A DNA stretch of 64,000 nt from Escherichia coli (GTDB lineage: Bacteria; Pseudomonadota; Gammaproteobacteria; Enterobacterales; Enterobacteriaceae). Where the stretch lies: assembly GCF_022846255.1 (NCBI RefSeq), contig NZ_AP025682.1, one strand, 5' to 3'. The notes below the pieces were generated by a model that saw only the letters and a program-made list of their open reading frames with translations, was not told the DNA's origin and made no database searches. Made by a program: the position numbers and the translations under genes. Shown here in pieces: positions 52,616 through 57,519 of the stretch (position 1 is its first letter; each line of letters begins with the position of its first letter).

Positions 52616-52766
52616 GGTTGTTTTTACGGGTGGTTAACTGAGCGGCGAATGTTAACACAATCTGACGGGAGCGCGCGAGACGCAGCCAGTTTCAATATCA
52701 GCAGGCGGGATCGCATTTTCATGGCAGTGGTTCCTTACAATGACGTAATTTGAAAGGAGTTTTTGC

Positions 52767-53735
52767 ATGAAGCCGGAAAACAAATTACCCGTTCTGGACC
52801 TTATCTCTGCTGAAATGAAGACCGTTGTGAATACTCTTCAGCCGGATTTACCGCCCTGGCCTGCAACGGGAACGATTGCTGAGCAACGACAGTATTACAC
52901 GCTTGAGCGCCGATTCTGGAATGTGGGCGCTCCAGAAATGGCAACCAGAGCTTACAGGGTTCCAACAAAATATGGGCAGGTGAAAACACGTATCTTTTAT
53001 CCGCAGCCAGATAGCCCGGCGACGCTATTTTATTTGCATGGAGGCGGTTTTATTCTCGGCAATCTCGATACCCACGATCGCATCATGCGCCTGCTGGCAA
53101 GCTACAGCCAATGTACGGTGATTGGCATTGATTACACCCTTTCACCTGAAGCGCGTTTTCCGCAAGCGATAGAGGAAATTGTGGCTGCCTGTTGTTATTT
53201 CCACCAGCAGGCGGAGGATTATCAAATCAATATGTCCCGCATTGGTTTTGCTGGTGATTCCGCAGGTGCCATGCTGGCGCTCGCCAGTGCGTTGTGGTTG
53301 CGCGATAAACAGATCGATTGCGGTAAAGTTGCGGGCGTTTTGCTGTGGTATGGGCTTTACGGATTACGGGATTCCGTGACTCGTCGTCTGTTGGGTGGTG
53401 TCTGGGATGGCTTAACGCAACAGGATTTGCAGATGTATGAAGAGGCATATTTAAGCAACGACGCGGACCGCGAGTCGCCATATTACTGCCTGTTTAATAA
53501 TGATCTCACTCGAAATGTGCCGCCCTGTTATATCGCCGGGGCGGAGTTCGATCCACTGCTGGATGACAGCCGTCTGCTTTACCAGACGTTAGCGGCACAC
53601 CAGCAACCTTGTGAGTTCAAACTCTACCCAGGCACGCTGCACGCCTTTTTGCATTATTCACGGATGATGAAAACCGCCGACGATGCTCTACGCGACGGTG
53701 CTCGATTCTTTAGCGATAGGCTGCAACAAGATTAG
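52767..53735 (+). CDS. aes: Acetyl esterase (HSL family alpha/beta hydrolase)
   Basis: HGGGF oxyanion motif and GDSAG nucleophile elbow. Confidence 0.93.
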
Positions 53736-54672
53736 CCATCATTTCGATATGCTCCGGTGTAGCATTAAGCGCCGGAATATATTCGTATTTTTTCCCGCCA
53801 GCGCCGAGGAAGACTTCACGGTTTTGCTCGGCAATCTCTTCCAGCGTCTCCAGACAATCCGCAGCAAAGCCCGGGCACATCACCTGAATATGACCCACGC
53901 CTTTTTCTCCGAGCATTTTCAGCGTTTCGTCGGTATAAGGCATCAGCCAGGGTTCCCGGCCAAAGCGCGACTGAAAGGTCATCATCACTTTTTCCGGTGC
54001 CATCTCCAGTGCGGAAGCGAGTTCGCGAGTTGTTGTGCGGCAACGTTGCGGGTAATCATCGCCTTCATCTGCATAACGCTGGGGAATGCCATGATAAGAG
54101 AGCAACAGCAGATCCGGTTCGCCATGTTTGGCAAAAGAAGCACGTACGCTGTTCGCCAGTGCATTAATATAATCGTGGTTATCGGCGTAATCACGAATAA
54201 ACGATATCCCCGGAATGCTACGTTTGCGCGCCAGAATGCGTGCCAGTTCATCCCATACCGCACCGACCGTTGAACAGGAGTATTGCGGATAAAGCGGCAG
54301 CACCACAATATGATCTACATGCTCTGCCAGAAGTTCATCTACGGCGCTTTCCAGTGATGGCGAGCCGTAGCTCATTCCCAGCGCTACGGGCGTCTCCGGT
54401 AAACGTTGTGCCAGCGCCTGCTGTTGCTGGTGGCTGTAAACCATCAGTGGCGAGCCACCTTCCATCCAGACAGAAGCATACAGCTTCGCCACACGCGGCG
54501 AGCGCAGTGGCAAAATCACGCCGCGCAGCAATGGCCACCATAACAACCGTGAGGTATCAACCACACGTCTGTCGCTTAAAAATTGTTTCAGATAGCGTTT
54601 TACCGCTTCAGGTGTGGGGGCATCGGGCGTCCCCAGGTTTGCCAGCAGGATACCGGTTTTAGTCTGACGCAT
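53710..54672 (-). CDS. hemH: Ferrochelatase
   Basis: 320 aa; 3' end overlaps the aes 3' end by 26 nt (convergent). Confidence 0.95.
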
Positions 54673-54819
54673 TACCGCCTCTTATCGATTCAACTTGTTG
54701 ATAATTGTAGCGGAAAAGTGAAGAAGAAGAACTAATTGCTGTGAGAGGTATTGCCTGAGGAGGATGAGCAGACCTGCCCGAAAGCAGATCTGCCCGAGAG
54801 CAGATCTGCGGCGGCTTGA

Positions 54820-55536
<717 letters not shown>

Positions 55537-55644: not shown

Positions 55645-57519
55645 TCAGGAAACCAGCAGCTGGTTCATACGACGAATAAACAGGTTCGGATCTTCCAGCG
55701 TACCGCGTTCTGCCAGCAGCGCCTGATCCAGCAGCAGTTCTACCCACTCGCTGAACTTCGCTTCATCTTCAGTATCCGCCGCACGTTTCACCAGTACGTG
55801 ATCCGGGTTCAGTTCGAAGATGTATTTCACTTCTGGCACTTTCTGGCCCGCCGCAGCGAACAGTTTCGCCATCTGAGTGCTCATTTCGTCCGCGTCGGTC
55901 GAAACGATCGCTGGCGTATCGGTCAGACGGTGAGTCAGACGGACATCTTTCACGCGCTCGCCGAGCAGGGCTTTCACACGGTCGATGAACGGAGTCAGTG
56001 CTTTCTCCGCTTCTTTCGCGCTCTCATCAACTTCGTCAGCCAGTTTTTCCAGCGACTCGTCAACTTTAGACACAGACTGGAACGGTTTACCGTCGAACTC
56101 AGTCAGATAGTTCATCATCCACTCATCGATGCGGTCGGAAAGCAGCAGAACTTCGATGCCTTTCTTACGCAGCAGTTCCAGGTGCGGGCTGCTCTTCGCT
56201 GCCGCGTAACTGTCTGCGGTGATATAGTAGATTTTCTCCTGCCCTTCTTTCATGCGGGAAACGTAGTCTTCCAGAGACACGGTCTGCGCAGAAGAATCGG
56301 TATGGGTAGAAGCAAAACGCAGCAGTTTGGCGATCGCTTCCTGGTTAGCGAAATCTTCCGCCGGACCTTCTTTCAGTACCAGGCCAAACTGTTGCCAGAA
56401 GGTCTGGTATTTTTCCGCGTCGTCTTTCGCCAGTTTTTCCAGCATTTGCAGCACACGCTTGGTCAGCGCATTGCGCAGGTTACGCGTTACCGTGCTGTCC
56501 TGGAGGATTTCACGGGAAACGTTCAGCGGCAGATCGCTGGAGTCAATCAGACCACGCACGAAGCGCAGATAGTTCGGCATGAACTGTTCTGCGTCGTCCA
56601 TGATGAACACACGCTGAACATACAGTTTCAGGCCGTGTTTATGATCGCGGTTCCACATATCCCACGGAGCCTGGGACGGGATGTACAGCAGGCTGGTGTA
56701 CTCCTGCTTACCTTCAACGCGGTTGTGGCTCCAGGTCAGCGGATCGTTAAAGTCGTGGGCGATGTGTTTGTAGAACTCTTTGTACTCTTCATCGGTGATT
56801 TCCGACTTGTTACGAGTCCATAGCGCCTGCGCTTTGTTGATTTTCTCCCAGGAGATAACGGTTTCGCCGTCTTTCTCTTCGCGTTTTTCGATCTCTACCG
56901 GCAGCGCGATATGGTCGGAGTATTTGCTGATGATGGAACGCACGCGCCAGTCATCGAGGAACTCGTCTTCGCCTTCACGCAGATGCAGGGTGATTTCAGT
57001 ACCACGATCTTCTTTGGTGATGTCGGCAACGGTGTATTCACCTTCACCAGCCGATTCCCAGAAAACACCGTTTTCTGGTTTTTCGCCTGCCGCGCGAGTA
57101 CGCACGGTCACTTTGTCGGCCACGATAAACGCAGAGTAGAAACCAACACCAAACTGACCGATCAGCTGGCTGTCTTTCGCCTGGTCAGAACCCAGGGATT
57201 CGAGGAATGATTTGGTGCCGGATTTAGCGATAGTCCCCAGATGGTCAATCACTTCGTCGCGGGTCATCCCCACGCCGTTATCGGAGATGGTCAGCGTGCG
57301 CTTGTCTTTATCGAAAGAGACACGAACGCGTAGTTCACCATCACCTTCGTACAGGTCCGGGTTAGAGAGCGCGCGGAAACGCAGCTTGTCCGCCGCATCG
57401 GAGGCGTTAGAGATAAGCTCACGCAGGAAGATTTCTTTATTGGAATAGAGAGAATGGATCATCAGGTGCAGAAGCTGCTTCACTTCTGACTGAAAACCAC
57501 GAGTTTCTTGTCCTTTCAT
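55645..57519 (-). CDS. htpG: Hsp90-family chaperone HtpG
   Basis: 624 aa with GHKL ATPase N-domain. Confidence 0.97.

Follow-up and report, generated by a model that had tools for sequence, protein, structure and literature searches.

The repeat array that lies between adk and hemH in the window (the whole 64-kb stretch of E. coli DNA that was analyzed) is most likely a rare and unremarkable three-arm allele of the ordinary Escherichia adk gene-end stem-loop. Array copy number is fixed at two among strains, and the window allele was a singleton in all of the collections searched. With origin and function taken jointly, we consider it probable that the array is an adk transcript-end stem-loop that acquired its third arm by unequal recombination.

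Layout and copy number of the array

The array is flanked by genes carried on the minus strand. The coding sequence of adk (55464..54820; 214 aa; stop codon TAA at 54822-54820) was delimited from the open reading frame list and its translation; matching E. coli records annotate its counterpart as adk, and the protein is identical to Adk of strain CU42ET-1 (WP_001313630.1). The ferrochelatase gene hemH (54672..53710) and htpG (57519..55645), also on the minus strand, were taken from the same list. An earlier note on this DNA had placed three tandem 16-bp palindromic repeats directly past the adk stop codon and upstream of hemH, and both the position and the repeats were confirmed. Positions 54762-54809 comprise three 16-bp units, each opening with a 10-bp palindrome (GCAGATCTGC twice and GCAGGTCTGC once), and read in the gene sense as TAA-TCAAGCCGCC-(GCAGATCTGC TCTCGG)(GCAGATCTGC TTTCGG)(GCAGGTCTGC TCATCC), starting 10 nt past the adk stop. 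Tandem Repeats Finder reported 54767-54809 with a period of 16, 2.7 copies, 92% matches, and a score of 72, and a repeat search placed three in-phase core copies at 54768-54777, 54784-54793, and 54800-54809. The latter two form a perfect 10/10 inverted repeat. Both GCAGATCTGC cores are perfect palindromes, and one core is imperfect, the hemH-nearest GCAGGTCTGC (gene strand) having one departure. Allowing one mismatch, the GCAGATCTGC core matched at six places in the 64-kb window versus 2.6 expected; three of the six are the array copies, and the remaining three are scattered with one mismatch each. Given this excess and the common phase of the cores, the cluster of three is not due to chance. 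Similarity between units is essentially limited to a core of 10-11 nt, and the "16-bp unit" is thus a core plus a 6-nt spacer that acts as a hairpin loop.

A 48-aa open reading frame crosses the array, and an exact-protein look-up with it returned no record. RNA folding also gave a 5-bp hairpin, CGGCU-AAUCA-AGCCG, around the adk stop codon (54812..54826, minus strand). On the plus strand, a terminator scan gave the dyad CGGCT-TGATT-AGCCG (54812-54836) followed by AGAATTTTTT a terminator-like score for antisense transcription; in the adk sense, the A-run comes before the dyad, and the K-12-type allele is without it.

Distribution of the array was analyzed with a 351-nt spacer query, which matched 5,424 of 5,426 complete E. 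coli genomes, none of them without gaps. The matches fell mainly into two bands. In 2,496 genomes identity was 90-95%, and each match inspected spanned 335 bp, the query minus 16 bp; in 2,918 genomes identity was 95-99%, and each match inspected, K-12 included, spanned 439 bp with 80% query coverage. By alignment, the shorter spacer allele carries two units, GCAGATCTGC-TTTCGG-GCAGGTCTGC. Exactly two units were present in all 41 other Escherichia hairpin-type spacers that were read, those of E. albertii and a second Escherichia species included. The three-unit array occurred in 0 of the 5,424 complete E. coli genomes and in neither of the two other Escherichia species, and no second genome with this allele was found among the collections searched. 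Synthetic one-unit and four-unit queries recovered the two-unit allele alone from complete E. coli genomes (record span, 149 bp). When metagenomes were scanned for pairs of perfect cores separated by 6 nt, four contigs matched, all at unrelated loci, and a three-unit adk allele was not among them. Unrelated metagenome contigs also carried a textbook bidirectional terminator, AAAAAAGA-GCAGATCTGC-ATCGTG-GCAGATCTGC-TTTTTT (L087, 861-886), and a cluster of several GCAGATCTGC copies within longer repeats (L088, ~880-1010).

The comparison of copy number across E. coli genomes that the earlier note had proposed was thus run, and no variable-number array emerged: two units are the fixed state, and only the window has a third. 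Copy number did not differ among strains as it does at a VNTR or contingency locus. The many copies per genome that mark REP/BIME or other dispersed repeats were likewise absent, with no excess copies in the 64-kb window; the repeat query matched each E. coli genome at one place, always adk, in searches where blastn would miss copies shorter than ~20 nt.

Two main spacer types separate adk from hemH in E. coli, the spacer of the window occupying 54673-54819. The hairpin type is 131 nt long and occurs in ~2,500 genomes (~46%); the K-12 type is 235 nt long and occurs in ~2,900 (~54%), exceeding the two-unit allele by 104 nt and the window allele by 88 nt. By alignment, the insert of the K-12 type consists of the unrelated sequence GGGGAGAGGGTTAGGGTGAGGGG followed by a terminator-like hairpin, GGCCGGATATTCATTCGGCC-TTTT. 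This element is named HPGQ15 or REPt45 in the literature. It resembles the array in its place between the adk stop and the hemH promoter block and in having dyad symmetry, and it occupies the spacer in K-12 and ~2,900 other complete genomes. It differs from the array in sequence, to which it is unrelated, and in belonging to a multi-copy family of G-quadruplex/hairpin repeats. A rare spacer type, for which RMDEC465 was compared, contains an extra REP element and a 573-bp hypothetical open reading frame. In all E. coli spacer types, the common sequence restarts at CACAGCAATTAG, the hemH promoter block.

Origin of the third unit

Comparison of the window with two-unit alleles indicated that the third unit very probably arose by out-of-register recombination between two such alleles. 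Two-unit alleles vary at two markers, namely the base ahead of arm 1 (A or C) and the loop (TTTCGG or TCTCGG). The Nissle 1917 allele has C and TCTCGG, and the FEX669 allele has A and TTTCGG, then ...CTCTCACAGC. In the window, arm 1 (GCAGATCTGC, 54800..54809, minus strand) is a perfect palindrome containing GATC. On these markers, arm 1 and the C ahead of it (54810) belong to the left-hand allele, that of the Nissle type. Loop 1 (TCTCGG, 54794..54799, minus strand) is the variant of Nissle 1917, E. albertii, and others. Arm 2 (GCAGATCTGC, 54784..54793, minus strand) is the extra arm and, lying between loops 1 and 2, the putative site of the crossover. Loop 2 (TTTCGG, 54778..54783, minus strand) is the variant of FEX669, STEC299, and others, and arm 3 (GCAGGTCTGC, 54768..54777, minus strand) is the same in all Escherichia alleles seen. 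The window array can therefore be written as a Nissle-type left part, GCCGCC GCAGATCTGC TCTCGG GCAG, and a FEX669-type right part, ATCTGC TTTCGG GCAGGTCTGC TCATCC...CTCTCACAGC, joined one unit out of register with zero unexplained bases. The three-unit junction, ...TCTCGGGCAGATC... (as a 21-mer, GCTCTCGGGCAGATCTGCTTT), is absent from both parental types.

The sequences flanking the array carry the same signature. A tract identical to FEX669 extends over 52683..54793 and includes aes, hemH, the hemH promoter, and units 2-3, its adk-side end falling within the array. Positions 52760-54793 are 100% identical to 12 complete genomes (FEX669 and 11 others), the next-best genome reaching 98.9%. Mismatches between the window and FEX669 number 0/2041 at 52753-54793 and 11/829 in adk, and they start at 54829. 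The corresponding counts are 39/2041 on the hemH side and 4/829 in adk for Nissle, and 33/2041 and 3/829 for STEC299. A Fisher test of 0/2041 versus 13 mismatches in ~875 bp of the adk side gave p = 1.7e-7, the 13 mismatches being the count for the L085 allele, which is very similar to FEX669. On these alignments, the nearest relative of the window switches within the array, between loop 1 and loop 2. Beyond the tract, the window differs from FEX669 by 1-43 mismatches per kb (1-kb bins), ~1.5% overall; such patchy divergence, 0-43 mismatches per kb with the tract included, indicates a mosaic and poorly sampled lineage. A metagenome scaffold that encodes the rare YbaL protein allele of the window has a two-unit array of the Nissle type. 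HemH, Aes, HtpG, and DnaX of the window are common alleles by exact-protein look-up, and their carriers all have two units.

Several further observations concern this region. The YbaL allele of the window was found in 11 metagenomic or Logan contigs alone, one of which (Logan DRR322657, 6.7 kb) is identical at the DNA level and ends ~3.5 kb short of the array. None of the complete E. coli genomes is close to the window, the best reaching 98.4% over 10 kb. The aes gene (52767-53735) encodes 322 aa in the window and in FEX669-type genomes, with a 26-nt overlap with the convergent hemH; in Nissle, STEC299, and most others it encodes 319 aa and the overlap is 4 nt. Polymorphisms that distinguish the window-type haplotype from the Nissle/STEC299 type are densest at 53513-53815, around this overlap. 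In strain 2014C-3338 (CP027452.1; L110, 9029-10904), htpG is split into two called genes of 391 and 211 aa, an apparent frameshift or pseudogene.

In the sequence of events that we propose, homologous recombination would have carried aes, hemH, and the hemH promoter into the window genome on a FEX669-like donor tract. The end of this tract would have fallen inside the stem-loop, with resident arm 2 pairing with donor arm 1, so that a resident allele of the Nissle type and the donor allele were joined one unit off to give three units. Such out-of-register pairing is possible because each arm is palindromic, so that the arms repeat one another in direct as well as in inverted orientation. For the resident parent, the closest adk-side matches reached 99.5-99.6% identity and none was exact, and the order of events (a misaligned crossover, or slippage followed by conversion) is for this reason a matter of parsimony. 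The outcome resembles unequal exchange at VNTRs and minisatellites in that a unit was gained at the junction, the flanking haplotypes differ, and the units bear markers of both parents. It differs in that the homology extends over a 10-nt arm and no further, what looks like a tandem repeat is a hairpin, and copy number is fixed, at two, in ~2,500 genomes.

Replication slippage could instead have duplicated one 16-bp unit, with the differences between units and the haplotype switch arising separately. Short tandem duplications commonly form in this way, the arms provide a direct repeat of 10-11 nt, and the resident parent allele lacks an exact match. We nevertheless consider slippage unlikely, since it needs either two more substitutions or a recombination end that coincidentally lies within about 16 bp of the duplication, whereas a single unequal exchange accounts for every base. 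The ~2,500 element-bearing genomes contain no 1-, 3-, or 4-unit products, and slippage is thus rare at this locus. An artefact, whether a PCR or template-switch chimera or a misassembly, would fit the occurrence of the three-unit allele as a singleton in every collection searched. We give this very little credence. The whole array measures 48 bp, far below read length; the junction occurs in neither parental type, so merging the reads of two strains cannot produce it, nor can graph misjoining at the usual k-mer sizes; and the flanking 2-kb recombinant tract is of genome scale rather than read scale. Finally, it is hardly credible that three units are ancestral and the TCTCGG-loop and TTTCGG-loop forms are single-unit deletions: deletion of unit 2 would yield the TCTCGG allele exactly, and deletion of unit 1 the arms and loop of the TTTCGG allele with C as the preceding base (as in CU42ET-1) and not A (as in FEX669), but the three-unit form was found in 0/5,424 E. 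coli genomes and 0/2 other Escherichia species, and a haplotype switch at the array is not predicted.

RNA folding and the end of the adk transcript

As judged from its predicted folds and from the sequences found at this place in related species, the array is most likely a stem-loop specific to Escherichia with which the adk transcript ends. In its normal form, two 10-nt arms enclose a 6-nt loop. The two-unit RNA is predicted to form one hairpin, at -17 to -19 kcal/mol and a pairing probability of 0.999, in which two of the 11-12 bp are G.U and the loop is UUCG or CUCG. Loop 2 (TTTCGG) gives a UUCG tetraloop closed by a U.G pair. In the three-unit RNA, the alternative hairpins that the earlier note had anticipated were borne out by partition-function calculation. 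Arm 1 pairs with arm 2, followed by UUUCGGG, with a probability of 0.51; it pairs with arm 3, in a longer fold (about -25 kcal/mol) that encloses a small fold of arm 2, with a probability of 0.43; and arm 2 pairs with arm 3 with a probability of 0.06. The 91-nt array region folds at -34.5 kcal/mol (z = -3.9 versus shuffles).

The sense strand folds more stably than the antisense strand (-19.4 versus -14.8 kcal/mol) because of the two G.U pairs; at the G of arm 3, adk-sense RNA has a G.U pair where antisense RNA has a C.A mismatch. This asymmetry favors a function at the RNA level on the adk-sense strand. Among nine distinct two-unit alleles, none of 20 arm positions was variable, versus 15 of 40 other spacer positions (p = 0.001). 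The arms of Escherichia are thus invariant, with zero compensatory changes, a sign of constraint that equally fits a role at the DNA level. An Rfam scan of 54300-55300 (E <= 10) returned only sub-threshold chance matches, the best being STnc370 at 23 bits versus a gathering threshold of 54.

We read the sequence after adk in representatives of 80 enterobacterial species, 79 of which had enough downstream sequence. A hairpin of -14 kcal/mol or lower was present within ~50 nt of the adk stop in 79/79, with a median of -18.8 kcal/mol and a median offset of 9 nt. Shuffled controls had a median of -9.65, and 17% reached -14. The hairpin sequences are unrelated between genera, and among the 80 species the GCAGATCTGC pair occurs in Escherichia only. 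Since all 79 species have a hairpin while its sequence is not shared, the presence of a hairpin is the conserved post-adk feature. Enterobacter, Klebsiella, and Kosakonia have TCTCACCCGG...CCGGGTGAGA, Citrobacter and Kluyvera have REP elements at this position, Serratia and Pectobacterium have GC stems with T7-8, and Pantoea and Erwinia have GC stems with shorter T-runs. In many species of Enterobacter, Klebsiella, Kosakonia, and Pluralibacter, the TCTCACCCGG-loop-CCGGGTGAGA past adk is followed by AAAWTTCTCAT (loci L010-L012, L015-L018, L025, L026, L031, L032, L034, L036, L038, L041, L049, and L056). There, GAGAA...TTCTC after the hairpin can pair as a second, overlapping hairpin, and this post-adk sequence may itself be a conserved element with alternative structures.

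A terminator role, which the earlier note had suggested, held up in part. A role at the transcript end is reasonable, given a hairpin in 79/79 species; the array is not a canonical intrinsic terminator. The array resembles intrinsic terminators in having a GC-containing stem-loop directly past the coding sequence, with an 11-12 bp stem in the adk sense 10 nt past TAA. It differs in the tail. A U-rich tract (about five or more U in 8 nt) was not found 3' of the stem, where the tails are UCAUCCUC (two-unit allele or arm 3) and UUUCGGGC (arm1:arm2). A promoter and terminator consensus scan of 54400-55100 called neither a minus-strand terminator at the array nor a promoter of the sigma-70 consensus. 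Textbook intrinsic terminators (GC stem and T7-8) do follow adk in Serratia, Pantoea, and Pectobacterium, and the K-12-type allele has GGCCGGATATTCATTCGGCC-TTTT. Given the poor U-tract, termination at the hairpin of the array itself is doubtful.

From arm 3 downstream, a C-rich, G-poor untranslated tract extends for ~100 nt (54683..54780, minus strand). Its C/G ratio is 2.4-2.75 in 78-nt windows between 54780 and 54683 versus ~1.0 in adk and hemH, and by composition it would resemble a Rho-loading site. The likely -10 hexamer of the hemH promoter, TACAAT (54704..54709, minus strand), was assigned from the alignment and from the spacers of the 80 species. It lies within the block CACAGCAATTAG...GCTACAATTATC that is common to all E. 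coli spacer types and many genera. In the literature, hemH has its own transcription unit with a known promoter, and adk and hemH of K-12 are listed as separate single-gene operons. A literature search on the array hairpin returned nothing.

Gene-end stem-loops are known to form and protect mRNA 3' ends, as in REP sequences and at the processed ends of Rho-terminated transcripts. The array is like these protective structures in having a stable hairpin (-17 to -19 kcal/mol) near the stop codon, with no U-tract and then a C-rich tract. It is unlike REP-type stem-loops in being confined to a single locus, in lacking a REP consensus, and in that each arm is self-complementary; it is known here from sequence. 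In the model that we propose, to which we assign a somewhat better than even chance, the hairpin would mark and protect the 3' end of adk mRNA. Transcription would probably stop weakly at the hairpin, or through Rho within the C-rich tract that follows it, and 3' exonucleases would then trim the adk transcript back to the hairpin, with hemH expressed from its own promoter. The three-unit allele would keep a hairpin at the same place, formed either by arm1:arm2 or by the longer arm1:arm3 fold (about -25 kcal/mol), and the effect of the third unit is probably close to neutral.

Regulatory alternatives and significance

The earlier note had also raised an attenuator, in which alternative hairpins (1:2, 2:3, and 1:3) would switch adk read-through into hemH. 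The three-unit allele does have alternative folds of similar probability, and its arm1:arm2 fold, followed by UUU, is slightly more terminator-like than the two-unit tail. Nothing else indicates attenuation. With only two arms, the normal allele has one fold (P = 0.999), and alternative pairing is therefore not characteristic of the element in the species; being a singleton, the three-unit form is not a regulatory design favored by selection. A U-rich tail is absent, the terminator scan made no call, and no leader peptide, riboswitch, or Rfam match was found. Moreover, hemH is listed as an operon separate from adk, with a promoter of its own. A regulated terminator or attenuator is accordingly quite improbable in our estimation.

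ALTERNATIVES

The palindromes could serve as iterated sites for a dimeric DNA-binding protein, or for Dam/SeqA via GATC, that would act on the hemH promoter ~65-120 bp downstream. The cores are 10-bp palindromes, and by our reckoning a self-palindromic hairpin arm is expected by chance about once in 1,000. The arms are invariant while the flanks vary, and the hemH promoter block lies downstream of the array. Recognition by a dimeric protein could account for arms that are both palindromic and invariant. An iterated binding site, as proposed in the earlier note, nevertheless appears very unlikely, as ~2,900 E. coli genomes swap the whole element for unrelated sequence and retain the hemH promoter block. 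The array is therefore not kept wherever the promoter is kept, and the motif was not found at other promoters, as an iteron or operator would be: it occurs at one place per genome, the adk locus, and elsewhere in the window not beyond chance. In addition, the 16-bp spacing sets adjacent sites on roughly opposite faces of the helix, and the G.U asymmetry points to the RNA-level, sense-strand function already described. We know of no E. coli operator consensus that matches the array palindromes.

The importance of the array is modest: what looks like a tandem array is the hairpin that ordinarily follows adk in non-K-12 Escherichia, in a rare expanded state. It also offers a base-resolved example of a recombination tract that ended in a 10-nt repeat and changed the number of repeats. 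adk is one of the seven Achtman MLST loci, and recombination breakpoints fall right at the 3' end of this locus. The adk-hemH spacer of E. coli is documented here in two unrelated forms, a dimorphism that is useful for annotation. K-12, the strain used for most mapping of transcript 3' ends, is without the array element, and because the two forms are unrelated, K-12 transcript-end data are not applicable to about half of the species. A further and rather speculative idea, to which we attach a low likelihood, is that a hairpin with self-complementary arms expands by misaligned recombination, and that the competing folds of the three-arm allele (1:2 followed by UUU versus a long 1:3 hairpin) could alter how the 3' end of adk mRNA forms or how much transcription reads through into hemH. 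If true, the expansion of such arms would offer a simple and observable way for gene-end structures to arise, lengthen, and become regulatable.
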